From NCBI GenBank assembly GCA_030704615.1, contig CM060732.1, forward strand, positions 52,328,001-52,392,000: DNA of 64,000 nucleotides, given 5' to 3'. The position numbers and the translations under genes are program-made. This DNA is from Takakia lepidozioides. Its lineage: Eukaryota > Plantae > Bryophyta. Shown here piece after piece: positions 767 to 44,850 of the stretch (within the stretch, counting starts at the first letter, position 1; each line of letters opens with the position of its first letter). A model generated the notes under the pieces. It did not search any database, was not told where the DNA came from, and saw only the letters and a list, made by a program, of their open reading frames with translations.

Positions 767-1112
767 AATATACTTACCCTTCCCAACTTTCTCCCTGTCC
801 TCTAGGAAGCCTATTGACATTGGGTGGACTTGAAACGGGAGTACATTAATGTCTCTGTGACTAAATGCCGGCCTTGTGACCTCGTGTTCTTGTTTGTTTT
901 GACCTGAAGCGCTTTGCTTCAGGTAAGGTAGTGCATTGGATTTAGTTGGAAAGCTTGGGGCCTTTCCCTCTTTAGAATATGCCTACACGGGCCATTCCCT
1001 GCAACTCCCTGGAGTGTGATCTCTGAATGGTAACAAGCGGACTCCTACCGCTTGGGGGCAGCCCCTCCGCCCAAATTGGGCAGTCGTATGCTCTGTCTAG
1101 CATACTCGGCAC

Positions 1113-16624: not shown

Positions 16625-18545
16625 CAAGTATGGGTGCTAAGCATCAAAACCCTTTACTTAGTTCTGATTTAGGGAAGGCAGGGCCGATAAAACATGAAAA
16701 TGAAAATCAGGTAGCGACTAGCGACAAAGCAGGCATCAAAGGATCCATGGTCGGGAACAAAGGGCATTGGACCCGTGACCCGCGATTCGCACGCCAAGAG
16801 AAGCTTGTGTTGTGGGGGTGCTCTCTGCATCTGCGCTCTGCCATGTCGCGATCCCTCTTGTTCCTCGCTCGCCTTGCTGCAACATCTCAAGTCCTCGCTC
16901 GCTGTAGTTCCTCGACTATCTCGTCTCTGGATCCACTATGTTATCCACTACCAGCCGCTGCGACATGGGTTTCTGGGATTGTCAGGAATTGTCCATCCCC
17001 GTTGCAAGTGTGGGGAAGTTGGATTCCTGCGCGTGGAATGAGTGACGAGCACACTGCAAAGTGGATGCAGGTACACCATCGAAGTATCTATTTCTTCTCC
17101 TTTTAGACCTCTTCTTTCGTTTGCCTGATGCAGTCTTCAAGCTCAGTATCTGTATGCCCGGAAAAGGCCTGACCACAATCTTTTTCGAAAGGAATTTCAG
17201 TTTCAAGCTCGAGTCTCACGCGTCTTCAGGGATGAGCTGACAGATTGTTGGAGTGGTTGCTTTGAAAGAGCCCGTGCTATTACACCTCGGGTGCTTCTTC
17301 CGCATCCAACGGAAGCACTCATAACCTTGACACTAGGGCATTGTGGAGGGGAATCTCAGGCCATCATCTGGATGTACCCGTTTACCTTTAATGTAGACGT
17401 TGTATAGGACAGAGCCCTGCGCACTATTGACCTCCTCGAACTGCTCATGGGGTCTTCGATCACCAGGAAGAAGCACAGCTTAAAACGCTCACTCCCAGCC
17501 TACAGCAATCGGTTGCATTGGGGATTGTCTGTTACATTAAGGCTTGCATCAAGATCATTAGGAAATGTAGACGTGATTTCAGCAGTACTGCTGAACCCGT
17601 TCCCCTTTTAATGGACACATTGTTTGTATCAATGTCAGGGAAGTTCTTGAGAAAATTACTGCAGAATGTAATCTCTCCTCATATGTGCCACATGTGGCTG
17701 TGATTGCATTGCCAGTGACAATACTACCAAAGACAAAAAATTGTTAACCATAGGCAGAATAAGGAGAGAAAAATTCCTGGTCTATGGACACTTGTTTTTC
17801 CTTAGTAGTCAAGGCCTTGCGAAGCTGATGTACTTTTCCAGGTTATTTTCTGTGTGGACAATCATGTGAGACTATGGTCATGGTATGGGGATGCAGAGCT
17901 CTGACAGAAAGTCACCAATGGAGCTGATTAGTGAAGTACCCCCTATTGAAGTTCATGCTCGCATTGCTGCATGTGAAGGAGGTTTTAAATCTCTTCCTTG
18001 ACTATTTGGCCTTTTGTTTTATCTGTTTGTAAAAAATGATGTCTTGACTCCAGGAGAGTGCACACGCCCTTTCCCTCTCATTTGTTGTCCAATCTGGGCA
18101 GGTAGCAAAAGTATATCGAATGCATTATCTCTGAGGACTGAGTTTGCTTTGCACTTCCCATAAGCATCACCGACCGGCCCGGGGGTGCAGCTTGCCTAAA
18201 CCCTCCGTAATGTCTTTCCTGTGTGGCAGGAAGGGATCCGGCATTGGGTCACCCGGTGGAGTACATATCTCTTGATGATGTAGGCCCATCAGTTTGTAAG
18301 TATTGTGGTCTCAGATATGTGCAAAGGCATGGTCACCATGGTGGCCACCACTAACAAACAAGGGACACCGAGGTCTTTGCATTCCCAGTCGAACCCGTGA
18401 TCGATCTATTGATTTTGGAATTAGTTGTCACGAAGGTTCTGCCAAAAAATTCTCGGATGGTTAGTGCAACTAAAGTGGATCTCTGTTCTTTAGCCAGAGC
18501 TTTTCTAGGATGTTGCAGCCTAGAAGTGGTTACGGAAGCAGTGAC
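16625..18545. repeat. Dispersed ~2 kb direct repeat, copy 2
   Basis: Colinear with 6747-8751; extra ~120 bp near 17125-17245 and lacks ~190 bp corresponding to 8538-8730. Confidence 0.9.
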
Positions 18546-19329: not shown

Positions 19330-22141
19330 CTACACCATCTCCCCCAGACTTTCAGTAGGTGAAGTGTTATTGCTTATCCACGACTGCTGCACAGAAGTGG
19401 GTGAAGGTGGCCATTGAAGACTGTCTGTCTTCATCAGAGGTCTCGAATCGTCGAAGGAGTGCTTGTCATCCTGTATTTTAATGGGTTGTCCATAACCAAA
19501 GACCTTGATGCGTTTCAGTTCCTCCAAAACTTCTGTCATCGTGGGTCTGTCTTCTTTCTCCGAAGCAAGACATCTAAATGCAAGCTCCGCTACTTGGTTC
19601 ACCATGTCCTTTACTATCGGTTTGCATCCAACCTCTAGGTGCGGGTCGACGATGTCATCCAAAGCTCCAGCTTGTATCTTTGCTACTGCCAGAGAAGCCA
19701 AATTAATCTCCCTCTTCTCTCTTGCCATGTCCACCGCTATTTTCGCTGTAAGAAGTTCCATGAGAACTACTCCAAAGCTGTAAACATCGCTCTTATCTGA
19801 GAGATGATAGCTCTGATGATAGTCCGGATCCAGGTAACCGGGTGTTCCTTGTGGAGCAGTAGAAATGTGTGTCATTTCTGTAGAGGGGACCAGCCTGGAG
19901 AGGCCAAAGTCTGCCACTTTGACTTTGTAGTCTTTGTCCAGAAGAATATTGGTTGTCTTCACATCTCTGTGAAAGATTGGAGGTTCAACACAGTGGAGGT
20001 ATGAGAGAGCTTCAGCTGTTTCAATAGCCACAGTCAATCGAGTTTCCCAGGTCAGGGTTCCTGCAGACTCTCCATGCAGGTGTTGTGCGAGAGAGCCGTT
20101 CGGCACAAATTCATACACCAAAAGAGCGTTGTGGTACTCCATGCAAAATCCAAGCAACTGGACTAGGTTTTCATGACGGACTTTTGAGAGCACTGTAACT
20201 TCATTGTGGAACTGGCGGAAGCCTTGATTACCCCCCTGATTGAGCTTCTTCACGGCTATCAGGAGGCCATCTTCCAGCTTTCCTTTATACACTGTTCCAA
20301 ACCCACCTCCCCCCAACTTCCGGGATTCACTGAAGTCTTTCGTAGCATGCTCTAACTCCTTGTATGAATAGAGATGTGTGCCCCCTGAATCGGTAGATCC
20401 AGTAGTCCAGATGGTTGCAAATGCATTCATGTCATACTGCTCGTTCTGACTACCAGATTTCAATTTCCACCTCCGCCACCGGCACATTGTGATAAGAGCA
20501 ACCAAGGCCACGAGCGCTACGGTACCCGCGACAACCCCTGCACCATGCCATGAAATCCATTGTGGTATTTCTCTTACAAGTAACAGCCTTCTCCACGAGA
20601 ACATTTGCGTATCCTCATGGACAGAAAGCACCTGACATAATTCCTTGAAAATAAACCTTTACCAGGCCGGTACACTCTCAAGAGTTGGACATTGAAAGAA
20701 CTTCCAATCTATGGAGATATACATCTTCAGAGTGGCTCGTTTTAAGGCGAAGCAACGTAGACCCTGATCCTTTGTGGTGATCCTCACATGTGTACTGCAT
20801 TCAGCATCATCTGGTCAACTCGGATCACTCTACCAACTCTATCTAACACTGTGACTCTGTGACATGATCCAAAACGCGGAGACACTCTCACCTGAAATTA
20901 TAGCTGTAGAATTTGAAGACTTATGATCTCGATCTGCAAAAAAGAGCCAACTACCAATTAGTTTCAGGAGAAGATTCCCGGTTCAAGAAACTGACCACAG
21001 ACTCATCCATGCTCCATTAGGGACATAATCAGCATATAACTCCTGCCAATACGAACTCAAATTATTTTCACGAGGTTGTGGCTCAGTCAAGTTCCTTTGA
21101 ACATAGTGTCAGGTCGAACAGTGCTGTATGCTATTTATTCGAGTGCATGACATCGTTTTGCACACAACATAGCTGAAGGGCTGTTGGGCATATGCCTGTT
21201 AGAATTCCTGTCAGTGTTAACTTCTTCATGCCATACAACACTGCACACACGTTGTGATTACTAAGAGTTGTTGAGTCTTGTGTCAAATGGATCGTGTCAA
21301 CTTAAAAGACATTCGAGAAGAGTATCCTATAATTTCATTTGGTCGAGGAAACTATACCTCCGCAGAATCCCTTGGGACTTGTGTTATTACCACAGTAGCA
21401 CAAGAATGAACTCTCAAGCCCTGTAGACTGATATCCACACAGACCACCACTTGTGTTGCAAGTTCGGCAAAGCGAGAGGTCCTGTGGATCCTCCCATCCA
21501 AGCTCGACGCCAGTTTTCCACTTCGAGTAAGATAAGCCGTCCTGATAATCTTGAATACCGGTGTATATCCCGCAGGACTCATTATAATAGGGATTAATAG
21601 AGTTTTCCCCCCTGGTAGGTGTATACATGCAGCAATAATCTGTGGTGTTTAATGCCGATAGGCATTGCAGCCCGTACTCCACACATGCAGTTACTTGAGC
21701 ACCTACACTGACAGACACTGAATCTAGAAGAGAGCAGGATTTTAGACCATCCACCTGTAATGGACAATCAAGTAGTAGCACAGAACTTCCATTAAAGTGA
21801 AAAGGCCCACTAGGGTTGAGATTGAAGGAAGTGCTCTTGTTGCTTGAATGGCAAGTAGACATGAAACTAGCAGAGATAACCAGGGCATTATTCAAGTAGT
21901 CGATTTGCGTCACCGTGTAGCCGTTGGCTGATGATGCTCCGGTGAATTGAAGTCCATCAGCGGTGCAGTGCACAGTGTTCTGGAACTGAGAGGCACCACA
22001 GCCATCCGCTAGTCCAAAAGGGTATTGTACCTTTATGTTTTTACACATATCAGGACACGAAGGTGATCCTGCGATCATTTTGGAAGCAATAGACAGGATC
22101 AACATTGCCATCATGACAGAAGCAGTTGCGTAGTTGCTCAT
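19330..22141 (-). CDS. WAK-like / LRK10L-type receptor-like kinase, exons 22141-21358, 20933-20892, 20537-19330
   Basis: Signal peptide, Cys-rich GUB_WAK-like (CPDMCKNIKVQYPFGLADGCG) and WAK-association-like (CRTCNTSGGLCGY..FLCYC) ectodomain, 42-nt micro-exon, TM helix, RD kinase (GGGGFG, HRDVKTTN, DFGLSR, GTPGYLDPDY). Confidence 0.92.
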
Positions 22142-24339
22142 CTTGTTTGACCGCCTATGGACGCTCCCGACGTTCCCTTTCCTCAGTTGCCAAACTCGAA
22201 GATCGAGGGAGGATATCTAGAAGAAAAGGGATCGACTACGAAACATGGGATGCACAAAGAGCATAACACTTTTACTGGACCTGAGATCAGAGAAGCTGCA
22301 AGCTACCAAACAAAACGCAGTCCAATATTGCGGGGCTGGTGTTCCTGGGCACACACGAGTATGTACGTTGTCGGGGAAGAGGAGAGTGGTGAGTCAGCTT
22401 CAGCGAGATCAGTGAGTGGATCAGGAATTGACCAAATTCCCTTGCACATCCTCTGCAGAGTCGCATGAGGCACACTCCTGGGTGTGTGTGTGTGAGAGAC
22501 AGAGAGAGAGAGTCAGTCAAATCACTGTGCCCATTATTTGACTTCCAAACAAGAAATCGGGAACGAACATGGTTGCCCCCGTAACAAAATGGCATCGGTA
22601 AACTGGCAAGCACAACACGTTGGGAGGGGCGCGCGAGGAAGGGGGCACACGAAAGGCAGCTACATCAGTAGATCTACGACTTTTTGAGAGCAACGCGCTG
22701 GTGACGTCACCCTATCATGCGCACTGCCCTTCTACACTTTTCTCACGCCTCCGTGAGCATAGCAAACTGAAACACCCACGGAGCCCGAGTGAATATCTAC
22801 GATTTTGTTGTTTGCAAAGGGAAGTTGTCGGTACTGGAGTTTGACCGAGGACGAACCGCCCGCGGGACTTGAGCGTAGGGGCGGGTGTGTGGGGACGTCC
22901 TCACCCAGTCCAGCAATTTGCAGGAAGGTAGGAGCCATCCGCAGGAAGGGGGGGGGGATGTGAAGCGGTCAAACTTGTGAATACTAGTTTCTTAGCGACC
23001 ACTTCGAAAGCATCTTTGCAATCCTATCTGCAGTCCACCTAGAAACATTATAATGATCCAGAGATTATGCGAAGTTAAGGGTTTGATATTGTCACTCTGC
23101 GAGCTCACAGACAACGTTGCCGACGTCTGTAGCTCCAGAACATCCTTCGGGTCCTCACGGAGACTGCCCGTCTATAGTTTATAAGTCTAGTACCACCAAA
23201 TCTTCAAGCATGTTTTTCTGCTTCAGCTGTTTCCAGTTCTCGACACTTTGAGAAAGGGGTGGCGCGAGCGAGACTTTCAAAGTTATTCTGAGCTCTAAAG
23301 CCGGAGGACATAACAATGATTTCAGAGAACACAGGTCTCTCTTCAGCTTTATCCGTTATTGCCCCACTGTCTCACCATCGTTCTCGACTCCAACTGAGCC
23401 AGTAGAAGAAAAAGGTGGTATACTGGGTGGGGATCCGTAACATACCTACATTATTAACTTGTTAAGAATTTTCTAGCTACAATATGCACACTCTGACTGT
23501 TCAGCTGCGCCCATCCAAGGACGCGGTCACGAAATGCACCCAGTGCTGGCACTTTCACAGGCCTTCCTGCCGGTCTCTATTCCATAATATCCTCGTCCTC
23601 CACTACTGGACTGGATTTTCAACACGTTCCCTACCCCACCCCAGCGTAGGTGGGATCCGTTAAGGCCCACCTCCATTACAGACAGCATGACACAGTGGGC
23701 CCTCCCAGACATGGGTGTTGGGCGATACAATCACCATCGAATTGCTCAAGCTCTAGACGCCACCATTCCACCAACCTGGGCCCTGCCTACCAGCTCCAGC
23801 GACAAGCCGTACGTGGTGGCACCTTTGACATGCCGCCATTAGAGATTGACTGTCTGACAGGTAGGATACCTGCAAATGTGCTGGGATTTCTTAAGATGAC
23901 TGCGGTGAAGCGATGTTGGTTAACCTTTCTAACTCCCACTGTGGACCTCTGCGACATGATCCCTCAGCCTCTCCTCTACCCCCCACTCCTCCAATGCTTG
24001 GCTCCTTGTACCTCAGTGTCCGCATACAGGATTGCACCCAAACCTTTTGTTTCTAGACCATTCATGCAATAGAGTTGAAGGGAGCCCAGCCTTACTGCTC
24101 TACTGATTTTTTCCTCTTTCTATGACACTGATCACTCTAGTACTGATGTCCCCAAGTTTATGGACCAAGAAATGAACCTTGAAAAACAATCAATTCGGAT
24201 ACCAGGGGAAATATAGTTATAGTTATACTTTTTTACAGATTGTGTTGTTTTATCATTAGTTAAAAATCTTAAGAAAAAATATTTTTCCAGATAGGCCCTC
24301 CAATGCCTGAAAGAGTTACACATATCAAAGTTTTGAAAA

Positions 24340-24901
24340 TTGTCAACTTTGTTTTTCCAACATTCACAATCAGAAAGTTGTCTTCTGCATACTGTTAGCA
24401 AAGAAAATATTGACAAAGCCTTGCAGGCAATGCACACCTTTTGTCTCACATCTGGCCTCAAGGTGAATTGGAGAAAATCTGTGGGAATCTTATCTATCTT
24501 GCAAAATGGCTATGCAAGCTTGACTTGGCTCCAAGAAAGGGAATCCCACACTATACTAGGTCACCAAATGGGCCTTAATCTGTCCCAGAACTGTACCATG
24601 AGGGCAGTCATCTCCAAGCTCAAGAGGAGGCTTGCATTCTGGTACTCAATTATGCTCTCCATCGCAGGAAGGGCCCTGGTGGCCAATCAGGTGTTAGAGG
24701 GTGCCATCGGGTTTCATGCGGCAGTCTGGGATCCAGACAAAAACCTGGTCAAAGAAATGAAGGCTCCCATTAGGAATTTCCTATGGGGGGCCACGCCAGA
24801 AGCACCCGTAAGGAGGGCTCTGGTCTCTTGGGACCAACTTTGTCAAAAAAAGAGCAAGGGGGAATTAGGAATCATTGATCTAGGCAAGCAAATTAAGGCC
24901 T
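24340..24901 (+). mobile_element. L1-type LINE ORF2 fragment (post-RT region), interrupted by the Gypsy element
   Basis: SGLKVNWRKS..LSIAGRALVANQVL..IRNFLWG..VSWDQLCQKKSKGELGIIDL is typical plant L1 ORF2. Confidence 0.75.
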
Positions 24902-24986
24902 TGTCGTGCGCATACATATCGCTACACAACTACATCGTTGTCCAAACCATACCATGCATATATGCACAATAAAGTAGTCTGCCACA
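24902..24986 (-). repeat. Putative 3' LTR (only 85 bp, TG...CA)
   Basis: Begins TGTGGC immediately after the PPT and ends GACA at the junction with the L1 fragment; no 5' LTR available to confirm. Confidence 0.45.
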
Positions 24987-25246
24987 ATCGCCCCCCTAGT
25001 TGGTGGATAGGTCCCTCTAACTCCAGATAGCTACAAGATGTAATAGCCACAGCCGTACTAAGTCCTCTATCACTGTCCCTATTGTACTCAAACTCTATAG
25101 ACCAAGAGGCCGGGTACAAGAGTAGCCCCATCATTAGTCGTCGTCTTGCAATCTGTGAACTTCAGTCAGGATCTCGTGTGTTCAAGGTCTCATAGTAGCT
25201 TGGTCTTGCGTTTCTTGTTAGCCTTCCATGGTTGTATCCACTCCCA

Positions 25247-25390
25247 CTATCCAATGCAATGTGGACATAACCAATCCCCATCCGGAACCATCTCAAGAGG
25301 TGGAGTCAAGCATCCCATATGCCAACCTCTAGAGCATCGATCACACACCAGCATGGTGGCTGCCCCTCTAGCAGACCCACACAACATGCA
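25247..25390 (-). CDS. PHD finger at the integrase C-terminus
   Basis: CMLC-x11-CDRC-x4-H-x2-C-LTPPLEMVPDGDWL-CPHC: intact C4HC3. Confidence 0.92.
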   Translation of the reverse strand, partial: CMLCGSARGAATMLVCDRCSRGWHMGCLTPPLEMVPDGDWLCPHCIG

Positions 25391-28303
25391 CCTCAAACTT
25401 GCAGATACCACTGCCAGGTTTGGGTCAATCCTGCCATCGACATTCGGAAGGTGACATGGCGCACAATTACGCACATGGTCCTTCCAAGTTATGCCATCCC
25501 GACCCTCCAAGATCAAGACGCCTGAGGGCAAAACCTCTCGAACCCTCAAAATAACATGTCATGCAGTCACATCCAAGGTCGTAGGAGCAGTCTGCTGCAG
25601 ATAGACATAATCACCAGGGTTGAATCTCCGAACCTCGGGACGATAACCCCCACCACGTATGATAGCATACCTCAACGTATCACGATGTTGTGCAATGGCA
25701 AGGTTTTCGAAAGCCATGGGCATGACTTTCTTGAACAACTCTGCACGCTGCTCACATGCACGTGCCCACACGTCCGGATCGTCAAGGTTAAGAACTGTAG
25801 CAGCTTCTCTGCGAATGGATGTAGGCAAATCCGGCTCTTGGCCAAAGAGAAGAAAGTATGGTGAAAAGGAGGCAAGTGATGCTTGTTTGCTGAACCTATA
25901 GCCCATGGCTAACCAGGGTAACTAAAGGTCCCAATCTCCTAGGTGTCCCTTCTGCAAGCCATACTTGCGCAAACCCCTCTTTACTGTCTGAACAACCCTC
26001 TCTGCCAAGCCATCGGCCTCAGGATGATCCCGAGAAGTGGTACGATGGTCTACCAAGGCCTTGTCACACAAAGCCTGAAACTCCCCCAAGAACTCTCTCC
26101 CTTGGCCCGTAAGTACCTCAGCTAGAGCACCGAATCGGCTAAGCACACAATCCAAGAATGCATACGCAGCTCCCTCACTAGCCTTATCCGGCAATGGAAC
26201 CAACTCGATCCACTTGGAGAAATGTTCCACCATCACCAACACGTACTTGTTGTGGCGCATGGTCAGTGGCAACGGCCCTACGAAGTCAAGACTCCACATG
26301 TAGCCCAATCCCATGCCGCACTAACCGTGCCCGCTGGGTTGGGTGAGGCACAATCCTCACTCGACCATCTTCCCACACTCGGAGCAGGTGTGTCCCCTCC
26401 CACTTGAACCTCTTGACTCGTTGTAGGATCCGATCCCTCTCCTTGGCAGTCACAATGGCTATCGTGTCTCCAGTGCGGAGGTAGTCCAACACAGCTGAAT
26501 CCTCATGTATATCTTTGGCGCCACCTTGCTCATTACTAGTCAACTGCGATTGACCAAACCTGGTCGATGCACAACCTGAAAATCATACTCTTGAAGGATG
26601 AGTGCCCACCGTGCAAGCTTCCCCGTAAGCTTGTATGACTCCATCAACCACTTGAGTGGTTGGTGATCCGTGACAAGGGTGAAGAGATTGCCGTATAGAT
26701 AGCACCTGAAGTGTGCCACGGCCCACACTGCAGCTAAGCATTCTCCCTCATATGAGCTATACTTAGTCTCTGCAGCGTTGTTCGAGCGGCTAGCATAAGC
26801 CACTACGAATTCTCTTCCCTCATCATCCACCTGTGTGAGCACCGCTCCAAGCCCCAGCATGCTCCAATCTATATGCAGCTGAAAAATGACGCCTCCTGAG
26901 AGGTCGTCTCAAGATGGGTGCCGAGGTCAACCTCGCCTTGAGCTCTTGGAAAGCTCGTTCTTGTACATCTTCCCACTGCCACTCCTGGTCCACCTTGGTC
27001 AGCTTGGTTAGAGCCTTTGCAATGGCACTAAATCCCTTGACAAACCGTCTATAATAGTTTGTCAACCCCATGAAATCTCGAACTCGGCTCACATCCGTGG
27101 GGCGTGGAATCTGTGCAATGGACTCTACCTTAATCTGTTGTACCCCCAATCCTTGAGGATATATCATGTGACCCAGATACTCAATCTGGTTGTGGAAAAA
27201 CTTGCACTTCCCCGGATGTAACTTCAATCCGTGCGCCCTCAAGCGCTCAAATATCACCTGAAGGTGTCTCTCATGCTCTTCCACCGTAGCACTAAAGATG
27301 ATGATGTCATCTATATAGCACCGAGCAAACTCCACCCCTGCTAGAATCCTGTCCATGACTCTCTGAAACTCTGCCGGAGCGTTCTTAAGTCCAAATGGTA
27401 AGAACCGCCACTGGTAAAGGCAATCATTCTCGTGCTCATTGATCCCCCAGAATGTCGTCTTCTGCTTATCCGCCTCCTGATCGGCAACTGGTGATATCCG
27501 GATCGTAAATCCAAAGTGCTAAAGACCTTGGCATGCCCAATGGCATCAAAGATCTCCTCTGGTGTCGGCATGACATACCTATCGGACTTGGTCTGACGAT
27601 TTACAGGCCGGTAATCACCGCACATACGTCTCTCCGTCCAATTGCCATAGACATCCTTCTTGGCTGGCATCACTGTGGTTGAAGCATACTCTCCCCAAGA
27701 TAGCTCCACCAAACCAGCCTCCCAAAGGTCCTGAGTTCTCATCTGAATCAAGGACCTCTCCATGTCACTGTATCTATAGGGTCTCCGAAAGATTGGCGTG
27801 TCAGTAGCCAATTCAATGCGAATCTCTTGACCCTTCAGTGCTCATAAGTCCTTCAAAGTGAAGGCAAAGCAGTTCCTGTAAGCCCTCAAGAACCACCGTA
27901 TACGTTGTCTCTCTCCTCCGGTAACTATAGGTCCAACATCAGGTTCCCAGTTGTCCTCCGTGACTGCAACCTTGAGTCGAGCAGGCTTAGAGGTAGAAGA
28001 CGTGTCCCGTGGTTGTTATGCTGCAACCTCTTGAGCAGTGACCACTGCCTCCTCTATCAGTGACAATGTCTCACCCTGCCCCATCATCCCATCCTTGAGG
28101 ACCTCCTCAACACGAGAAAAATCCCCAACCTGATCCATCACCGCCGCCTTGGCTGCCAACTCATTCTGAACCTCGAGCACCTCCCACGTGTGCCATGGAT
28201 GCGGGCTGCACCTCGTGGTCCTCACCTGCTTGCCCCCACTCGCTGCCTGTACCGTCTCGGTAGGCATGGAGACCATGAAGGGAAGTGTACTCCGTACTCT
28301 GCG

Positions 28304-29272
28304 CTACTCAGCCATAGCCAAGCTGATAATCCAGGTCAAGCAATTGAGATCCATTGCTTGCCCCAACACCTGACGACGTGATGCCGCAGAAAGAGATGGC
28401 ACCGCCATGGTACCAGTGGTAAAACCTATCGCCCGTTCGCGCTCGTCAGCATTGGGCTCCACTAATTGTTGCAACTGGCTATCCCACAATAGGCCAGGTC
28501 CACCATCCCGAAAAGCATGGGATCTTGGGAAGCTGAGCAGTGTAGGTAATGTTGCTTGTGGTTGACCCACCCTGTTGACCACTACCAAAGGCAAACGGTC
28601 ATCGTGTCTCACACGTTGAGACTGCCACCTTGTGTCCAAAATGCTATCCACTGTGAGGTGTGCTGGCCGTTGTACCCCATCAAATGCACGCTTGAGCAGT
28701 GCGGGTGGCATCAAGTTAGTCCACCATAGCCGTGGACGATGAGCCCGTGACCCCACTGCAGCTGCATCCAGCAACACTGCTGACCCAAGCCACGACCGGA
28801 CTTGATGCACACTGGCCATCACCCTGGCCCGAGAATCACCCTTCAGTGGCACATTCTCCAAGATGTATGCTGGAGATACAGCTTGATGAAGCTGCAAGTG
28901 GCGCAAAACCCGCACCATCTCCCAAAACAGACCCGTCCTCGAGTCTCGCAATCCATTGCCATGCCCGGCTGATGAATGCCCTTGGCAGGGCCAACCTGCC
29001 ACTACCAGATCAATGGAGCCAACCTGCTCCAAATCCTGCGCCCCCAGCAACGAAATGTCTGCTGGCAATGATTGTTGGTATCCACGAACTGCAGACACTG
29101 GCAACAAATCAGGGTACTGTTGTACCAACTAAGCAACATGGCGTAGTGAGACGCGTCGTGCAGTCTCATCCCTCTCCATATACAGGTAACGTCGAACTCG
29201 TACACCTGCCTGCAGCACTGCAGCCAATCCAGTGTTGATCCCGCCAAACAATTCCAGAAGGCATATGCCTTC
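28304..29272 (-). pseudogene. DNMT3-like C5 cytosine methyltransferase domain inside Gypsy pol (one internal TAG)
   Basis: Motif I LLELFGGI, II YMERD, IV DLVVAGWPCQG, VI YILENV, VIII AHRPRLWWTNL, IX ERERAIGF, X RRQVLGQAM; same frame as protease and RT. Confidence 0.92.
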
Positions 29273-31769
29273 ATCCGGGCACTGCCACACAAGAGGTGTG
29301 GTATCCAATGGCGACAACTGAGGTGGTCCTGGTGTAATCACCGCACTCTCCTCTTCTCCTGACGGTACGAATGCCTCTACCCAGGCTTGTTGCACCCGTC
29401 CATCAGCAGCCTGATGCAAATCCTTGCTCGTACCCCACAATGGAGTGTGAGCAACCATGGCAGGCAACTCCGCCGTACCATGCATGTTATCCTGCTCTGC
29501 TGAAGGTGGCACATCCTCTGCATGGGTATTGCCTTCCAGCAACTCTCCAGGCCAACTAATTGCAATTGTAAAGGCGGCTAGTGTTGGCATCTTGCCCCAT
29601 TGGGCAGCCGCAATACCCCCAATGAATGTCACAGGGAGCTGTGCACGACGACCATCCCCTGACTGCCATCCAGGCCTGTAGGATGCTGACTCCTCCCAAA
29701 AGTCCAGGGTGAAGCCCATGGGATATAACACTGCCCCACCAACGAGGACATCGTACGAGACCGTGTCTGTCACAATGGCCTTGGCTCGCATCACTGAGCC
29801 ATCTATAGGATGATCCGGCTGCAGTCTAATGGCCAACTCACGCCGTGTCATGCCCCGAGCCTGCTCTGATCCTCCCAGAGATGTCTGTATCTGGAAAGGA
29901 CAAGGCTCCATATCCGCCTCCATGAGGCCCAAACCTGCAATAGCAGCTCTGCCCAACATCAGTGGCTGAGCTCCTGAGTCCAACAAGACCCGCAGTGGCC
30001 GGTACTTCTTGCCTGCCGGTCCACTCAAAGAGAAAATGTCATCCTGGTTGTCTAACAAGACAACTCCAGGTGTCACCATGGCGCGCTCAAAGGCTGGCCT
30101 AGCTGGCAGCTCCGTCAACCTGGCAGCTGCAGCTTGCCATGGCAGTCTTGACCCTCAAATCCGAGGATCCCTCTACCACTACACCTTCCAGTAAACTCCG
30201 CAGAAGATGAAGTGACCTCCCCACTCTCACAGAGTGTTGCTGCTAGTCTGAACACTGTAGCCGGTCTTACCCCCGGCATTGCAATCATGGTTGCCGAGAA
30301 CAGTGGGGCTTGACACACAGAGGTGGCTGCCCCCAATAACACACCGGCTGCACTAGCCTTAGTAGCAGGTGTCAGTGATGCACGTGTAGCTCTCCCCAAT
30401 GGCATAGTAACCTCCGCCTCGGTAACAGTCAGGCGAGAACTAGGTGTCATGGATGGCGTCGACACTGTCTCCGCCAATGTGAATGACTGAGGAAGCCTCG
30501 CCTGACGGCTTGCCTCCCCACGCTGTGCATCCAATTCCACCTCTGCACCTCATGGCTCAGGAACTCGTGTTGCTCCTCGAGTCACGGCTGCAGCAGACTC
30601 CACCTGCTCTAGTGGTAGTGTTGCTCCGCACATAAATCCCATGCCTCCCATATCTCCTCCCTCAGGAGCAGGAGGTGGACCATCCCGCCTGGGAGCCGGT
30701 ACCACCTGAGCTGTAGCCATGGCAGCGAGCCTCTGCTCTAGCTACTGAAGCCGGTTGGCCATGCCTTGGTCAACACCCTGACCTCCGCATCCTTGGCCAT
30801 GTTGAGCTTGCCCTTGGCCTGCACCTCATGCCCGGCCACCTCGTCCTCTTTGGGCTGGTCCACCTCGCCTCCGGCCACCATTGTTCCCTTGGCCTGGGCG
30901 CAACTCAGGATGCAAGTCATAACACTGGGCATCTCCATGCCCATACTTGCCACAATGCCCACACTGCAACTGTGCAGGTTGTGCTTGTGCCGGCCTTTTG
31001 CCAATCTCTGGGCAATCTCTCTTGACATGGGGTCCTCCACATGTCCAACATATCACCCCTGGTTGCTGTTGGCTTGCAAAAGATGCTATTGGCCTCTGCA
31101 CCTGAGGTCCCCTGTAAGCTCCATGAAATTTGGGTTGGGAAACCTTGCCCCCCTGACCAAGTTGTTGGGCAGTCCATTATGCTTGTGGGCTGGCAACTGC
31201 GCCTCGTGCAGGCATGTCTTTGCCAAATCCAATGGTAACAACTCGCTCCTCCACCATGTTGAGCTCAATCCGCTCAGCCAGCAGAAACACATCTGCTAAT
31301 GTGGGTTGGGCTGCTTGTAACAGGGTTGCATCCTGCACCCTTCTCCTGAGCTCCTTGTTCAAAATTCCATACCAGAACTGGATTGCCTGAGCTTCAATAA
31401 CCCCTTGGGTCACACTTATCAAGCGCCTCATACGAGTGTACGCCTCTCGCAGGCTCTCACTGGGTTTGCGCTAGAAATCTTGCAAACTTTGCAGCTTCTC
31501 TGTCCGTACACCTTGGTAGTTCCTCCGCAACTCCTGGAAGAACTCCACCACCGGGTTGAATCTAGGCACATGTGTTGTAGTCGTGGCAGGAGGAGTAGTA
31601 GCACCTTTTGAACTGGTACCACCTGTAGAAGTACCGGCACTACATTGTGGTTGGCGGAAGAAATGTAGGGAATCGGACATGCAGTCTGAACACAATGATT
31701 TTTGAAATCGTCAATATTTTCATTAAGTGTTTCAGAACTGTACAACAAAAGGATCCAAATGAGACTTTG

Positions 31770-34700
31770 CTATGGTGAGGATCCGCGATCACTGTCCGAT
31801 GCATCCCCGACCTCATGCAAGGATGGTTGTCTTCCACCTGTCTCCGAACCTGCACTGCCGCTACCGCTGTTACTCTGAGAAGCCCTCCCCTCAAAAATAC
31901 CATCCTCACCAGCTGGAACTGTCCACCTGGGTGCGGAACTGTCCTCATCATCCCCCTCGCTCTCGGACGCGGATTCTATGACGAACATGCCTACTCTGCC
32001 TTTCACAATTCCATGTTTGGCCTCACGCCTCATTATAATTCTCTGCTCATTCCCGAATATCAATTGCTCAAACCGAGTAGGCCTATCCTCCCTCCTGATG
32101 GCTTCTCTGGCAGCCGTGTCTGCATAGGCTGGTAGAAAAAAGGGCTTCTGGGGACTCGCGAGAAACGATTTTCTGGCAAAGAATGGCCGATGCGATTCTG
32201 TCTCCTCCTCTGCAACAAGGTCCGATTCGGGCAAGTCTCCCAGCATTTCCTCGTCGGACGACTCTGCAAGGCTGAGTGTACGCACAAACACAGAATGAAG
32301 CACATTAGAGCATTCAAACAGGGAATCATCGGCAGGTTGCATGGTCCCTACAACCGAAACCAATACATTTACTATGGTGCAACTCACTCGAAGACAGACA
32401 TTGGAGGAAGCGGCTTCGGGCGCCCCTGCATCGTACGAATTTCTTGGACTTCCTCCTCTTCCTCTTCCTCGTCCCTTTCCACGTCCTCTTCTGCGTTTTT
32501 GGGATCCTCAGTCAGAGGCAGACGTTGTAGGCCTGCCATATTGAAATCGTACAAGGCCGTATCCCCCTCAAATGAGAACACAAATCGGTTCGACATCCTT
32601 CCAGCCCACATACAGGGACCAGCAAATTCATACGACACAACCACAGCCAAAGTCAAGAATGACTCGCTTCCTCGCGCAAGCAAACATACACAATCGGAAA
32701 CGGTGTCAATTTCGGTGCCGCAATCACTAAACGCTCTAACCTGTATTTGCAGTGACGTCGAGGACCCTGCCTTCAACATCCGTACACGTTTCCATGAGCG
32801 TCTGGATGAATGCAGGACTCCTGGTCCTGCCATACCTCCAAGGCTTGCCCGACAAATCACAAAGCATGTCCTTCTCTCCCACATGGTTGAACATGACGTT
32901 ATACTCCAGTGGATCAACTGTGGAATCAACAAGTCTGCCTGCTTGACGTAATTTGAATTTTGAATGTTCCTTCACGAAGCAAAATGCCTGAAAGATAAGA
33001 GTCTGCAAAGAAGGAAATGAGAACGTGAGAGGTGGCCTACACGTACATGGACAATTTCGGCGCAGAAATTGGCAGAGCGGAGGAGAACTGCAGCATACCT
33101 TCTGACCATCGTTGAGAAGACCCTGCGTGTTGATGCAAGTCCAGATCTTTTTCAGGATGGGTGCTGCACTTCTCCCCGTCCATACTTTGATATCATTCTC
33201 AGTGACTTCTCCATCGGTTGTTAGCACAACAACACAGCCGTCGTCGTCCAACATGTTGGCTGTGAACCCGAATGTGTGGCTCCAGTATCTTTTGTCGTAC
33301 TTGTTCCACCAGGGTAGTGAGCCCAGCCCCAGTATCTCCTGCCCATCCGGGATATCCACGAGGATCATGTCGATGGAGGCTTTCACCGCCCTACCCCCGA
33401 CTGTGCTCTTTTTGCCGTGGCTCATCGCCACAAAATACTCCATCATCTTTGTGTAGCCAGGAGTGTCCTCCATATCATTGCCAATGGCCTTCCTCTTCCC
33501 CTTCCCCTGGTGGGCCTCGATCGCCTTCCTCAATCTCGTTTTCTCCAGCCTTCTAGTCAGAGCAGTTAGGAAATTTTCATTAACACACTCCACAATTGTG
33601 GGTGTTTTGAGGACTTCCCTGCCCACAATGTGCACCGCACGGTAGGGTCTGCCAGGTGCATCCTCGTATAGTGATCTCTTCGCAGCCGAACCCCTGGAGC
33701 GCTGGCCCTTGTGAATTTTCGGACGAGGTGTGGCCCCCTGGGTGTTATCCTGCTGGAAATCGTCGTCGGAATCCTCGTCATCTGGCTGACTATGTTGCTG
33801 CTTCTTCTTCTTGGGTGTGGGGGTCTTCGTCTCTTGCCCCTGTTTGCGCGTTTTTTTCCTCTTGTCCTTGGGCTGCTCAGTTGCCTACTTCTCCATCTGC
33901 TCCTTCGCCAACGCTGCCGCCTTGGCTGACTTTCTCAGTGCTTTCTGCTTGGCTACCTCCTCTGCTTTCAGTCTTTCCGCGTCCTCTAGTTGGGGATTCG
34001 ATTGCGCCTTCATAGCCCTGGCATTCGCTTCCTTCTTCAAGTTAACCTCCGAGAGGTCAACGGTCCCACTTGGGAGATCCACATACCAGGGACAGTCTAC
34101 CAAATGCTCGGCATGCCACTCCTTCGCCATTACTTCTGTGTACATCCCTTTGAATGGCTCCGGACGGAATGAGTGCAAAGTTTATGTACCTGCAATCACG
34201 AGGCAGTTCAACAAAAATCATTCTACTGATGAATCATGCAAGAGGAAGTTCTCAATGCACAAGGTATTTCGGCACCGAAATACGCAGTGGACCGTGCCCC
34301 AATTACCCAACACTCACATCTTGCAGAGGTATATTTCGGCGCCGCAATATCCACCGCTGCTTAGCTAAATCATCAAAACTGCAAATAGGGGGATGGATTG
34401 GCAGCAAATTACCTGAACATGATACGCATTGTTGCTTTGTCAGCACCCTCCTGCTCGTCGATGTATACGCTGCGTCTTGCCTTTGCAATTTCTCTGATAA
34501 AGAGGTTTGCGAAGCGCCCTTGCCAGGACTGCACGTAGTTCTCCATTGTCTCCGGTTTCGTCCAGTCGATCTGTAACTTGAAAGTGGTGGTGTTGCAATC
34601 CAATTGCTCCTGGGCGTGGGTCAGTACCTTCAGCAGTGCAGGTTTCCAAAACATTCATGAATTTGAAATTGCAATGATGTCCAACACACAGAAGAGGAGG

Positions 34701-36660
34701 AAATTATACCTGATGCCACCAAGTCATCACATTGAGCCAGTCGTTCATTTTGTCGTCTGTTGGCTCGATGGGAAAGTGGTACAGCAGCTTCGTGTTTGTA
34801 TGGCCGTTCCAGATTCGCAGCCACCTCGTCTGTATGGCCTAACATCGGTCAGACATAAGAACTTCATTATGAGAATCGCGAGAAGACACAAAACAAGAAC
34901 AAACACATGCTTACCTTCTCCGCCGGCTCAACACAGGACACTGCGATGTGATGAAGTTTCTCCATGGATATTTCCGGTTTCATGGGTCTGGAGTAATGCA
35001 GTCCTATCTCCGCCAGGAACTCGGCACCAAGACCAGGGTCAGCGATTGTAACTTGCTTAACAAGTTTGGACCTGTACTTGGTCCGTGATTGCCTCCCCGC
35101 CTGCACAATGTGACTCTCTATCGACGCGTCCACCTTGTTGGGGGCATCCTTCTCAAAGAACTGCCTTTTGGCATAGGCCAAGTCATCCCTGATGTTCGTC
35201 TGCATTCCCATACCCAGCGGATACAGTCAAGCCACTGATCCCTGCAACAAATAGCATTAAATTGGGAAATTTGAGATGAACCTCACCGAATAGAGGATCT
35301 CCACCATGGCGTCCAGTGTTGGTCGGGTACCAGGTGCGATCCGCTTTCGCAAGGGACTTCCTATACAGCTCGGGATCGAGGGATTTTTGGAAGTCCGTCA
35401 GCGGTGTTGTTCCCACTTCTTGCACTCTGTAGAGCGTATGTGCCAGATGAGTTTCCACGAAGGCCCTCTCTGTTACCCTGCCATGGAGGGAAAAAAAAAG
35501 AACAACATGAAAATATGATACAAAAATAACCAGATTTTGGCACAGCAATCCAATTTCCAGTTCATAGAGTGCATGACAGTCAAGAACATTGTCTATTTCG
35601 GCGCTGCAATAGGCAGTACACAAGGATGTAGTTGTATACTTACAGATTTATATCCGCCATGGCACCCTTCAGCAGTCCTCTGTCCTTGACGTCCACCTTC
35701 ACGACAATGCAGTCCACCATGTAATGCCAATTGATATCTTGCAGATGCATTTCAGCAATGTACTCTGTCCAGGCAAGCATCTTGTGGTTCCCGTCCCAAA
35801 CAAAGAACATCTTCTCTTCCATGTGTGCGAATGTGGGATTAGTCTTCAGAGAGGCTTCAAACTCGGCATTTATAGTGTGTCAGTGGGGGCTCCAATTCTG
35901 AAGCTCCTCTGCAGTGGGGCCCCTTGTGACACCCTGGTCATTCTCAATGGAAACGTAGAATGATGCCGACCCCCGTCTGTACCCCTCTCTGAAGTTGTGC
36001 TTCAGTCAATCAATGTCCTCTGGTAGTGCTTGCCTTACAACTGGAAGGCTAACTATGCGACACAAAGGAACTTTGAGGTTCTCCGGATACACCATGGAGC
36101 CCAAAACGCGGCCTATGTTGCTATGAGTCTCTGCTAGCAACCTGTTTGCTGCTATGTTCATGTCTCGTGCGCTCATGAGCATACCCGCCACCAGTTTCTT
36201 ACTTCTATCACCTCTCTCACTTCCCTCACCCCTCTCACCAGCCTGTCTACTGTCCTAGAGGTTTTGCTTCTCCGCAAGCTCCAACAGGTTCTGATCGTCG
36301 TCAAGTCGCACCACGTTGTCGTCCTCTGCTTCTATCAGCTCAATGGGTCGCCCTTCTGCAGATCCGACTCCGACATCTCCAGTGGCCTCCACCGCATCCG
36401 TGTTTTCTGAAATTGCCTGCAAACCCAATATCTCCACTTCCAGTCTCCCAAGTGGTTTTACTGGCGAAGCCATGGGCTCCTTCGCTTCCTCGGCTTCCAG
36501 ACTCTAGGTGGGCTTTTCTGAGGTGATTTCTGAGGTGTTGAATGAGGAGTCGCCTGCCTCGATGTACTTCCACCTTGAGAGCGCAACACCCGGGCAGGAG
36601 TATCCAAAGTTGACTGTGTTGCCTCGCCCCCCTGCGATCCCTCCCCAGCTCCCATGTCAA
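31770..36660 (-). pseudogene. Spliced transposon cargo gene: ParB/Srx-like domain + helical region + beta-class N4C/N6A DNA-methyltransferase-like domain + acidic tail
   Basis: VPLCRI..VRQ..FYVS..FFVWDGNHKMLAW (35640-36190); IDMILVDIPDG (DIPDG at 33342-33356); LDDDGCVVV; RSPAFIQTLMETCTDVEGRVLDVTANTG, intron, PCMWAGRMSNRFVFSFE; several stops/frameshifts; exon bounds approximate. Confidence 0.72.
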
Positions 36661-37164: not shown

Positions 37165-38700
37165 CCGAATTGCGGCGCCGAAATACTATTCCATTCACCG
37201 GATGTTGTTACCGGAGCAGCCGGCATTGAATGAACTTTCCGCACATCATGAAACCCAACCGCCATGAAAATCCCCTGCCTATGACATTCAACAGTTAGGT
37301 CGGTACGTTTCATCAGCGGACGGATGAATTTCGGCGCCACAATTCATCGCTTCCCCAGTCCTCATCCGTCATAAGCAAACCTATTAGTCGGATATCGGAA
37401 CCGGAATTAATTCCGGAACAGTGGAGACGGCTGCACTTGGGCACATTTCATCCATATTTCGGCGCCAAAATTCATTAAGAATATCTCCGTCCACGCGTAG
37501 ACCAGGTGAAATCATCCATATTTCGGCGCCGAAATTCATCCAGGTCGAAGACTAAATCAGCACCATGCTACGCGTTGCCACCATCATTGCCCCTCACGGT
37601 TGTTGTCCATGCCTGTTGGACTTGCCATGTCTGGACAGTTAACTATAATTTCGGTGCCGTAATTATACTTTATGTGCGGCAACGTCCCGTGCGAAAATGA
37701 CAACTTAATGGATACTGTCAGTTTCAAATGAAAACAACGGCTAAAATGCAATTATTTTTCCCCCAACATGAAAAAATATCCCCTTTCGTCATTGGATGTG
37801 CCGATTTCTCCATTTAATGCAGAATATTCGTGTTATCTTCGTCGGAATGGGTTATTTCAAACGAATTTCGGAACATTACATCATCCAGAAGCAAGAAGTA
37901 AGTGTCGGGTTCGGACGAATTCGGCGCCGAAATTCATCCGTCGCATAGAAAATGTAATATTAGAGTTACCCATTGCGGATAGTAAGGATGAATTTCGGCG
38001 CCAAAATTCATCCATTTCAAAGAGAAATAAATGTTGGAGGGAGGGCATTGGATGAATTTCGGCGCCGAAATCCAGCGCTCAAACCCTTAAAAGAAATTGG
38101 AGGGATGACTTCGGATGAATTTCGGCGCCAAAATCCATTGCTCGCAAAGAAAAAGAAAATTAGAACGAAGGACTTCGGATGAATTTTGGCGCCGAAATTC
38201 ATCTGTCGCACACGAAGAAAAAAATGAAGGGAGGACTTCGGATGAATTTCGGCGCCGAAATCCATCCGCAGGACAACAGAATTTGGGTCGGAAAAGGAGA
38301 AGATGAATGAATTTCGGCGCCGGAATTCATCCCTACTGCCAATTCAGGATTACTGTCATTCAGATGTCGGCACCAAAATCCAGATACGTGGTGAATCATG
38401 ACTATAATCACGAACACATTCATCCGTAATTCGGCGCCGAAATTCAAACCTTATGTGCAGAAACAATTTCATTAAGAACATGTTCATCCGAATTTCGGCA
38501 CCGAAATCCATCCGTCGGGTGCTTGCTCAGTTTCATGAGGTGAACAAATTACGATTTCTATTGGCGAAATTCATCCCCTGGCTTCCAAATCTGCTACATT
38601 ACAGAGATGTTCATCCAGATTCCGGTGCCGAAATTCATGAGAAGACCTGATTTATTGTAGCCCAACTGGTGGTACATCACAATTCAGGCACCAAATATCC
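37165..38700. repeat. Phased array of palindromes GGATGAATTTCGGCGCCGAAATTCATCC between divergent genes
   Basis: GGCGCC-type cores at 37174, 37333, 37397, 37461, 37525, 37653, 37870, 37923, 37997, 38061, 38124, 38188, 38251, 38316, 38369, 38433, 38497, 38624, 38687 (some degenerate). Confidence 0.92.
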
Positions 38701-42312: not shown

Positions 42313-42489
42313 CAGAGAAGAGTGAAGAGCAAAATGAGAGCGAGGCCGGTGGAAGAGGGATATATCATTGTTGCACTGCCAATGTCGTATGCGGCAGAAC
42401 TTCTATTTCCTCCGACATGTGTGCTTTTATTAGACAAATCCGCACCAGTTTCAGGAGAGTTTGCAAAACTCCCTCACCGTAAGGCGGGT

Positions 42490-43030
42490 ATTTGCTCTCC
42501 GGAGCCCAATTTTGGCGCCGTTATTGGATGGAATTTGAATATATATATAAACACGTTCATCATACATCATGTAAGTGATCTTATTGATGGACTGTGGAAG
42601 CTTCAGCCGAGAATTTTGTTTCCGGAGCCCAATTTCGGCGCCGTTATTGGTTGCACTCCAGCCTTCAGCCGGGTATTTGGTTTCCGGACCCCAATTTCGG
42701 CGCCGTTATCGGCTGCACTCCGGTGGCTTCAGCCAAGTATTTGGTTTCCGGGGCCCAATTTCGGCACCGTTATTGGCTGCACTCCGGAGGCTTTCAGCCG
42801 GGTATTTGGTTGGCGGAGCCCAATTTCGGCATCGTTATTGGCTTCACTCCCGAGCCTTCAGCCGGCTATTTCTTTTCCTATGCCCAATTACGGCGCCGTT
42901 ATACCCAACCATCCTGCACTTCTGCAACAGTACTATCCACGGTTATAGGTCGCCATTGCGTTTTTGGAGTCTGCAAACCCGGATCCTAATTCCGCTTGCG
43001 TCTCTTCCTCTGGGATAATTTCGGTGTCGT
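42490..43030. repeat. ~64-bp subterminal tandem repeat containing CCCAATTTCGGCGCCGTTATT
   Basis: Cores at 42514, 42637, 42699, 42763, 42828, 42892, 43023. Confidence 0.9.
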
Positions 43031-43567
43031 TATTGCCCAGAATTCAGTTTTTCTATGACCTGGCCTGCCGGTCCATGAACCTGGGCTCCAAGTCATGAGC
43101 GGACACTGGTACTTATGAGCGGAGTGCTTCCAGCATGAGCGCGGAAATCTTCGAAAACCTTCTCTTCTTATACTACTTTTGATTATTTTATAGTTTTGGG
43201 CCCGAAAAAAATCTGCCGAAATTCGAAGTGTGTTACTTTGCGGCTCATGGGTGAGCCATGCCCGCTCATGAGCTTATGAGCTCATGGCTCATGAGCTCAT
43301 GGAATAGCAACCCCCCACCTGTGGTCGGGCAAAAAAAGTTAGGGGAGAGAGCCTCGGCCATTTGAAGTGCCATTGCTTCAGCATACACAGGAAGTACAAA
43401 AGTGGAAAGGGGGCTGTCGAAAACAGTCTCGCCACAAATGGGGGTGTCTCCTGAAGATCCATCGCTTCCTTTCCTGCAAGTCACAGCAAGAAAAACGTTA
43501 TTACTGCAAATTTGATGTCTGCGATTGAAAAGGGCACCCAAAGTGGAATGACAATTCCATTGCAGAC

Positions 43568-44850
43568 TTACTCACATAGAAAATCATTGTGGACCTTCTT
43601 ATCCTCGTGATCCTCATCATTTCGGATTTGAATCGTTTCAATTTGTGTGCCTGATGTAGACCCAAACAGAAGGGGCAAGAGCACAGTCTTGTATAGGTCA
43701 GAGTCATCCTCCATGCCAAAAAGAGATCTTCCGCCTGCCTTGCACGCATGGTAAGTTCCTCCTGCAATAGACAGGAGGACATGAACAGTTTGTAGGGGGG
43801 GGGGATTAACGAAGATGAAAATGGTGAAAGAAAACCAAATCTGAAGGGAGAAAATGAACCTGTGGAAACCGAGAGGTCGACCACCCGTGCAGAATGGTGG
43901 CTGCATGACTCCAACAATGTCTGCATGAACGTTGGGGTTTTCTTCTTTGCACCTCTCCAGGGAGTGCCATCTGGTCTTTTGAGAGTCTGACTGAGCTGCA
44001 TGAAGTTGTACAAAATGTCATCGACATGCGGCTCATACTGAAACACCTTTGGTCAGAAATCTCGAAGCTGCGGACAGAGGATGGTGTCTTTGAGGTGCGA
44101 ATCCTCCGCAGGCAGATCGCCTCGAACATCCTCGTCTGCGAAAGACAGGAGGTTAGGGTGCGAAACATAAACAACAGTGGAATTTTGTAGACTTGCACTT
44201 CAAAACGTAGGCATGCAACAAACTGATCAGTCAAGTATTTTTGATGATCGGTGCCGATCATCACAGATGAAATTGTACAGTTACGCTGTAGAATATATTG
44301 AGGCATCATACCAGCTGACCAGGACAACTCCCTTTCACAAGGTAGAGGATGTTCACACAATTCCATGTGCGCAGAATTTCAAACCCAGAGGACTTCAGGT
44401 ACGATGCCAATGCCCGACGACTATCCTTGTCACATGACTGAAAGAGTAGAAGTGTCCCTGCATCAGAAAGGAAATAGTTGCAGAACCCAAACACCCAACT
44501 CCAGTAGTTGTCATTGAATTTGTTCCAGCTTGGCGTCTTGCCCTTCGGAAGAACTTCTGACACAGCCTGGCCGTCCGGGATGTCAAGAATGACCATGTCT
44601 GCAGCAAACGTTTTCTGCACACCGCACACAAAAGAGGGACCAGTGCTCACCTGCGACAGATATGTTCAATTTGAGAACGAAGAGAAGAATGATTGCAAAG
44701 AAACAAATACCAATACTACCAATGTCACCTACTTTGGTGAAGCCAGTTTGGCAATTCGCAGAGAGAACACATATATTGGCGGCCAGCTTCAACCTTTCCT
44801 TTGTAATATCTTCCATTATTTGACCGGCCAACCTGTGATGACGACAATGC
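43568..44850 (-). pseudogene. Second N4C/N6A-methyltransferase-like gene fragment (MTase exons only)
   Basis: ADMVILDIPDG (44570-44584), WNKFNDNYWS, FLSDAGTLLLF, PWRGAKKKTPTFMQTLLESCSHHSARVVDLSVSTG, intron, GTYHACKAGGRSLFGMEDD; clearly homologous to 32.4-33.4 kb. Confidence 0.75.

Follow-up and report, generated by a model that had tools for sequence, protein, structure and literature searches.

The DNA analysed here is a stretch of 64,000 nucleotides of the moss Takakia lepidozioides (contig CM060732.1, positions 52,328,001 to 52,392,000 of the forward strand; hereafter the window), and it contains a Ty3/Gypsy retrotransposon with a DNMT3-like cytosine methyltransferase (DNMT) domain encoded between its protease (PR) and its reverse transcriptase (RT). 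The question raised by this locus is how such an enzyme would be expressed by a retrotransposon and what it would do there. On balance, we favour the explanation that the element in the window is defunct and belongs to a Gypsy lineage of streptophytes in which a likely leaky stop codon behind the DNMT would supply the methyltransferase at capsid-like levels, where it would likely methylate new complementary DNA (cDNA) inside the particle.

The element is a decayed, 5'-truncated copy in the order gag-PR-DNMT-RT-RNase H (RH)-integrase (IN)-PHD, and was delimited as follows, with loci numbered L referring to relatives from a metagenome scan (169 loci were confirmed, of which the best 80 were kept):

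24902-31643, minus strand: decayed Ty3/Gypsy element, bounded by a step in repeat depth, with loose ends at 24902 and 31643
30193-31643, minus strand: remnant of gag containing several stops and two zinc knuckles of the CCHC type, in a frame other than that of PR
29600-30100, minus strand: aspartic protease (LLDSGA), recognised by its motif and its counterpart in L054
28307-29290, minus strand: DNMT3-like C5 cytosine methyltransferase with motifs I, IV, VI, VIII and X
28010-28018, minus strand: in-frame stop followed by CAA CCA, the predicted readthrough site ending the Gag-PR-DNMT frame
26543-28015, minus strand: RT and RH with one stop and frameshifts, assigned by Pfam
25559-26542, minus strand: integrase, comprising a partly deleted zinc-binding part, the core (rve) and a C-terminal part
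25247-25558, minus strand: PHD finger at the C-terminus of the integrase (Pfam PHD, E 1.9e-11)
24902-25000, minus strand: polypurine tract (PPT) and then repeat B, terminating in ...GACA, matched by blastn to L063, L036, L022 and others

A single frame extends from 30154 to 27341 (minus strand) with four internal single stops, after which the RT is out of phase (the frame shifts after about 27477); gag is in a different frame. The open reading frames (ORFs) at 29129-30154, 28304-29128, 28016-28303 and 27341-27841 are separated by TAG (29131-29129), TAG (28306-28304), TAA (28018-28016) and TGA (27844-27842), the first of which interrupts the DNMT domain at a point after motif I and before PCQ. 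This arrangement had been recognised in a first-pass annotation made from the sequence alone, with slightly shorter coordinates begun at ATG or GTG. Three of the four stops are lesions of the window copy, being sense codons in most relatives. In the window, Pfam detected DNA_methylase (E 1.9e-12), RVT_1 (E 3.1e-25), RT_RNaseH (E 1.8e-35) and, downstream, rve; the LLDSGA protease segment gave no Pfam match, and its equivalent in L054 matches Asp_protease_2 weakly (E 2e-4, under the cut-off). Apart from the DNMT inserted after PR, the domain order (GAG-PR-RT-RH-IN, with a DDE integrase) is that of Ty3/Gypsy elements. The solved PHD structures nearest to the PHD finger include those of CHD4, PHF12, KDM5A/B, ATXR5 and PHF21A. 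The gag remnant is 46% identical to residues 109-565 of Marchantia Mp4g09160 (P0004), residues 1-108 of which are unmatched in the window; the 5' repeat, the primer site and the first ~108 gag residues are missing from this copy, and its right end is precise. The end at 24902 lies inside a remnant of a long interspersed nuclear element (LINE), 3' of the polypurine tract, and the other abuts another repeat at about 31643. In run X1 the summed contig depth rises from about 60-97 in the flanking bins to 3.5e5-1.1e6 across 24902-31643, and 67,678 contigs map to the 11 kb between 23000 and 34000, values which mark a highly repeated family only and are not copy numbers. The same run, which also contains the element, matches the flank at 23000-24807 without difference at a depth of about 60.

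The remaining stop, at 28018-28016, is shared by the family. A homologous stop is present in all 49 loci with an anchored junction (49 of the 80 could be anchored on the RT N-terminus): it was seen directly in 42 and, once frameshifts are allowed for, in the remaining seven, which belong to a decayed subfamily and in which it was located by a motif chosen after viewing their translations. Four more loci carry the stop without an RT anchor. The 42 loci collapse to 37 at 99% and to six groups at 80% DNA identity, the L072 group being merely a frameshifted member of the large subfamily, and the independent lineages with the stop number about seven, counting the window and the decayed subfamily. 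Elsewhere in PR, DNMT, RT, RH and IN, a given codon is a stop in about 1% of copies on average and in 33% at most. At 28016, 523k of the 531k summed depth in run X1 keeps the stop codon, as is likewise found in runs X5, X7 and X9; the stop at 28306, unlike that at 28018-28016, is absent from other copies in the contig reads of the four runs. L054 consists of a gag-PR-DNMT frame of 1369 codons and an RT-RH-IN-PHD frame of 1047 codons split solely by TAG CAG TTA, so that its 2,416 codons are interrupted by the conserved stop alone. The first-pass annotation had taken PR-DNMT-RT for one polyprotein; this has to be amended, since the family-wide stop divides Gag-PR-DNMT from RT-RH-IN-PHD and the full polyprotein would arise by the predicted readthrough only.

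The nucleotides following the stop resemble a known signal. UAG-CAR-YYA is the readthrough consensus of the tobacco mosaic virus (TMV) type (PMC3159437), and readthrough in plant reporters is given as 32% for TMV and 11% for beet necrotic yellow vein virus (PMC2754532). Five of the seven lineages have the full stop-CAR-YYA (CAA CCA twice, CAG TTA once and CAA TCA twice), the window junction being TAA CAA CCA, and in one lineage a second stop replaces CAR; CAR follows the stop in 50 of 53 junctions. By chance, CAR-YYA follows a stop triplet in these loci at a rate of 82 in 33,266. The second codon after the stop is CCA, TTA or TCA and thus encodes Pro, Leu or Ser, which argues for a constraint on the nucleotides. 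No stable RNA structure was found 3' of the stop (z -1.7 to +1.3). The linker before the stop is free of stops in uninterrupted relatives, with third-position changes weakly dominating, and of 26 members of the clade in protein databases, 22 stop short of RT, some of them perhaps truncated at contig ends. Because the gene models of Klebsormidium (P0049) and Closterium (P0243) run from DNMT into RT unbroken, the stop looks like an innovation of the bryophyte-type clade. Judged from these sequence patterns, RT-RH-IN-PHD is very probably produced by readthrough of the conserved stop.

The methyltransferase domain resembles DNMT3 in fold and keeps its catalytic motifs, with ELFGG (motif I), AGWPCQ (IV), ENV (VI), AHRPRLWWTNL (VIII) and LGQAMD (X) in the window copy. 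The first-pass annotation had described a Gypsy element in which a DNMT3-like domain lies between PR and RT, with intact PCQ, ENV and RxR motifs and a counterpart of AHRARYFWGNL of DNMT3A in AHRPRLWWTNL; Pfam, the motifs and the fold agree with the former, and the window translation and the phmmer alignment bear out the latter two points. Searched with phmmer against solved structures, the domain matches DNMT3A/B/C best (E 4e-9), followed by a DRM-type entry and HhaI; its identity to human DNMT3A is about 23%. An AlphaFold model of the domain (mean predicted local distance difference test score, pLDDT, 93.8) has DNMT3A/B/C in the top rows of both Foldseek (E 5.9e-19) and VIA; it aligns to DNMT3 over 271 residues with Z 29.6 and a root-mean-square deviation of 2.4, above a bacterial CpG methylase (Z 25.6) and HhaI (Z 24.0). 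The fold is of the DNMT3 type and, unlike in DRM, the motif order is not rearranged. DUF3444, which is carried by the host DNMT3 of non-flowering streptophytes (PMC6453930), was not found in the window element by Pfam.

The ratio of nonsynonymous to synonymous substitutions (dN/dS) was estimated by the Nei-Gojobori method on tblastn-aligned codons for 18 pairs. Between lineages, the DNMT gave 0.09-0.13 in five pairs: 0.13 for L054/L055 (dS 0.25), 0.12 and 0.11 for others and 0.09-0.10 for the window against L002 and L063 (dS >2); two further near-saturated pairs gave 0.21 and 0.28 and the remaining pairs were saturated. These values are similar to those of PR (0.11-0.15) and higher than those of RT (0.03-0.07). 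Decayed copies within one subfamily gave 0.54-0.89, a rise which is expected after insertion. As judged from the substitution ratios, the DNMT is under purifying selection between lineages, as the first-pass annotation had proposed to examine. Across 201 retrotransposon DNMT domains, the catalytic Cys is matched in 174, EN in 170 and HRxR in 176; in the wider group, motif IV reads AGWECQ or AGFECQ, not xPCQ, in roughly one in three of the sequences matched.

The element has relatives in Marchantia, Calypogeia, Sphagnum, Closterium and Klebsormidium. Among longer proteins there were 69 matches, including Calypogeia fissa (71%), many gene models of Marchantia polymorpha (55-73%), Sphagnum, Klebsormidium nitens (43%) and Haematococcus (35%). 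The window DNMT is 67-72% identical to the Gypsy DNMTs of Marchantia, Calypogeia and Sphagnum-type loci and 44-45% identical to that of Klebsormidium; L002, from the large subfamily among the best 80 of the 169 loci, is 87-93% identical to named Sphagnum proteins. Among the named DNMT homologs there was none from tracheophytes, which is no proof of absence, and viral contigs gave only distant phage Dcm-like matches (30 loci, 28-48% identity over short stretches) forming a separate clade.

Trees were built quickly and midpoint-rooted, with neither host DNMT3 nor DNMT-less Gypsy outgroups and with DNMT rows of <250 residues and RT rows of <180 residues left out; DNMT and RT recover the same groups. 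In the DNMT tree the window copy falls in a 37-row clade with Marchantia, Calypogeia and Sphagnum-type elements (SH-like approximate likelihood ratio test, SH-aLRT, 99), the RT counterpart of which has 98. In the RT tree, under its midpoint root, the window element joins Klebsormidium in a PR-DNMT-RT group (SH-aLRT 97), which in the DNMT trees has 87 or an unresolved base. A relationship to the charophyte elements, as drawn in the first-pass annotation, is probable from these trees and the protein matches, and with relatives in several bryophytes and charophytes the domain is no one-off insertion; the further suggestion that the lineage persisted into embryophytes fits the congruent trees, whether by vertical descent or with some horizontal transfer. 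On the latter point, the RT of Marchantia P0006 is 88% identical to that of the Sphagnum-type L002, the two being sisters in the RT tree and being separated from Calypogeia, the other liverwort, in the DNMT tree; their closeness possibly reflects horizontal transfer or paralogous lineages.

Two layouts were met, namely PR-DNMT-RT in Klebsormidium, Closterium and the bryophytes and RH-DNMT-IN in Haematococcus and most of 141 new representatives, these representatives coming from a profile search in which IN/PHD columns were included alongside those of the DNMT; its matches were mostly RH-DNMT-IN elements, with host DNMT3 absent from them. A much larger and diverse group of PHD-bearing Gypsy elements (about 130, together with P0052, P0056, P0068 and Haematococcus) carries DNMTs of the same clade, located after RNase H and before integrase. 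The DNMT is found at two places in the polyprotein, so the domain moved within it or was captured twice. No chlorophyte Gypsy-DNMT3 is described in the portions of the 2018 paper (PMC5890265) drawn on here.

The element ends were examined in 46 loci of 6 kb or more, most of which are truncated or without repeats. L063, L065 and L079 have all four repeats in the order A...PPT-B-A-B, and L033, L062, L064 and L069 have the B pair; the B/A junction of L063 is a palindrome, TGACA-GC-TGTCA. Around the window copy no pair of repeats reaching 40 nt was found, and two full long terminal repeats in direct orientation are lacking. The window copy has PPT-B only, without the A-B tail, and other copies in its genome continue past B; the tail was probably lost by B-B recombination.

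Taken together, these features would fit the following course of expression. Most ribosomes would stop after the DNMT, giving Gag-PR-DNMT as the main product, and a minority would pass UAG-CAR-YYA to make RT-RH-IN-PHD, as established for TMV-type signals. Through its fusion to Gag, the DNMT would be co-packaged at many copies per particle and then freed by the protease; supplied with S-adenosylmethionine, it would methylate the cDNA before integration, as the first-pass annotation had suggested, probably at CG as in SymbioDIRS-Dnmt3, and the pre-methylated copy would either resemble host chromatin or be born silent. The PHD finger of the integrase would likely read histone H3 tails in picking the site. 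The fullest form of this proposal, an old streptophyte Gypsy clade, still abundant in bryophytes and Marchantia among them, in which DNMT3 is packaged at capsid stoichiometry, TMV-type readthrough limits the supply of RT and integrase, the particle serves as a methylation chamber and integration is of a split-repeat, PHD-guided kind, is put forward tentatively, at somewhat less than even confidence.

Several observations weigh against the leaky-stop and cDNA-methylation reading. The largest sampled subfamily, the Sphagnum type (40 of the 53 junctions), has CAA CCC or CAA CTC and not the full CAR-YYA, and has an in-frame ATG two codons past the stop. Klebsormidium P0049 and Closterium P0243 (continuous Pol), and Haematococcus with about 130 others (RH-DNMT-IN), are without the stop, and therefore bulk DNMT is not required in the wider group. 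The CpG observed/expected ratio of the element is 0.51, no lower than in the neighbouring LINE, CACTA and host exons (0.44-0.72), and thus leaves no footprint of self-methylation; CpG and CHG ratios are uninformative. The KnitGypsy-Dnmt3 domain of Klebsormidium was inactive in yeast, a result termed inconclusive by its authors (PMC5890265). The ATG just mentioned would allow re-initiation to take the place of readthrough, but the window copy, L015, L054 and L057 lack it. Splicing across the stop would be a further route, as in Ogre elements, and gene models P0006, P0010, P0014, P0015, P0039 and P0064 do link DNMT to RT by skipping the junction; these models cut at different places, however, as would be expected of annotation software bridging a stop, no donor or acceptor motif is common to the lineages, and a contig of run X7, which is only guessed to be RNA, crosses the junction without a skip. 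We thus regard an Ogre-like intron or re-initiation as an unlikely source of RT-RH-IN-PHD.

The target of the enzyme is a separate matter from its expression. The DNMT may have its role once the element has integrated, or in trans (on host chromatin, other copies or RNA), or may bind nucleic acid without methylating it; the missing CpG footprint and the inactive Klebsormidium domain would be in keeping with such roles, host-level and rate-limiting alternatives are listed by de Mendoza and colleagues in 2018 (PMC5890265), and the AGWECQ and AGFECQ variants of motif IV would suit a non-methylating protein. The fusion to Gag, however, would point to packaging, and the retention of Cys, EN and HRxR in most of the 201 domains speaks against a loss of catalysis, such that a target other than the particle cDNA is considered improbable, if a little less so than splicing or re-initiation. 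The capture by a dead element of a host moss-type DNMT3, which bryophytes retain (PMC6453930), or of a Dcm-like bacterial or phage gene is of a different order: identities of 67-72% to bryophyte Gypsy DNMTs and 44% to Klebsormidium, against about 23% to human DNMT3A, together with the missing DUF3444 and the matching RT and DNMT trees, effectively refute a one-off event, and the short phage Dcm matches stand in a clade of their own. We accordingly give capture hardly any weight. Methylation of cDNA in the particle by a DNMT supplied through the leaky stop is retained as the best explanation.

Elsewhere in the window, a host receptor kinase gene of the WAK/LRK10L type lies at 19330-22216 (minus strand), the exon of which has its best named matches, in a full-length search, in Ceratodon (62% over 91%) and Physcomitrium (63%); both are mosses, consistent with the land-plant origin called at first pass, and this one gene points to a bryophyte host without separating moss from liverwort. 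The repeat family that abuts the truncated gag at 31644-36000 and recurs at 43500-47100 (both minus strand), with a summed depth of about 5e4 in run X1, has intron-containing ORFs without a Pfam match, and similar-looking ORFs are found at 43501-44378 and 46640-47101. A LINE at 1101-5654 (plus strand) has long, nearly intact ORFs for endonuclease and RT and a 141-nt tandem repeat in ORF1. The CACTA-type transposase region at 50109-60929 (Transposase_21, DUF4218 and DUF4216) includes inverted segments of 100-492 nt at 98-100% identity and is adjoined by an ORF with a NIF/HAD phosphatase domain. About 1.7 kb is duplicated 10 kb apart at 6902-8537 and 16803-18524 (89-98% identity), on either side of a SWEET transporter gene (exons about 9280-11570, minus strand). 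Arrays of 63-65 nt repeats with the common core ATTTCGGCGCCG stand at 37986-38521 and 42465-42914, at the ends of a 38-43 kb block, and are possibly the subterminal repeats of a DNA transposon.

The presence of the family in Marchantia polymorpha (e.g. Mp4g09160 and Mp8g17980) makes cDNA self-methylation directly testable: as of 2018 the lack of a tractable host had kept the function of retrotransposon DNMTs from being settled, and Marchantia met mutants de-silence transposable elements (10.1101/363937). DNMT genes of such elements can also be mistaken for host DNMT3 in bryophyte gene counts and, if the proposal is true, with thousands of copies the element enzyme could contribute to de novo methylation in bryophytes whenever silencing is relaxed. 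According to an opinion paper (PMC6338049), land plants "such as tracheophytes" have no methylase-encoding transposons, and the portions of PMC12344493 drawn on here mention only streptophytes and dinoflagellates; the main text of PMC6317226 makes no mention of PHD, Marchantia or Klebsormidium, and the supplement files of PMC5890265 that were searched name neither Marchantia nor Sphagnum. In the papers searched we found no description of land-plant members, although figures, supplementary trees, Repbase or REXdb may include some from bryophytes, or of a retrotransposon DNMT followed by a readthrough stop, nor of a predicted capsid-level accessory enzyme placed before a conserved stop as an expression layout for a retroelement.

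Among known systems, the closest is KnitGypsy-Dnmt3 of Klebsormidium nitens (PMC5890265), likewise a Gypsy element whose PR and RT flank a Dnmt3-related domain, with DIRS-like split repeats (A...B-A-B) as in relatives of the window copy and with purifying selection on the DNMT by a criterion of Ka/Ks < 0.2, below which the window family falls in five pairs. It differs in that DNMT and RT share one ORF, whereas the window family ends its DNMT at the conserved stop, and in that its host is an alga and not a land plant; the copy number appears far higher in the window family. SymbioDIRS-Dnmt3 of Symbiodinium also has a Dnmt3-type domain in a retrotransposon polyprotein and methylates CG de novo in yeast, and methylation of cDNA has already been proposed for DIRS-Dnmt3 (PMC5890265); it is, however, a DIRS element with a tyrosine recombinase, an independent capture and a DNMT placed in Pol with RT. 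The PHD finger has a parallel in the Gypsy polyprotein of Gypsy-7a_cRei from Chlamydomonas (PMC9940879), for which no DNMT is listed there and in which the PHD lies between RH and INT, whereas in the window element it ends the integrase. As regards expression, an in-frame stop sets the ratio of upstream to downstream protein in murine leukaemia virus (MuLV) gag-pol, Tca2, SIRE1 pol-env and TMV type I signals (PMC2194720, PMC3159437), as it would here, the bypass route of Tca2 being stated as unknown (PMC2194720); the stops of MuLV, Tca2 and SIRE1 stand between gag and pol or between pol and env, whereas that of the window family stands after PR and an accessory enzyme.

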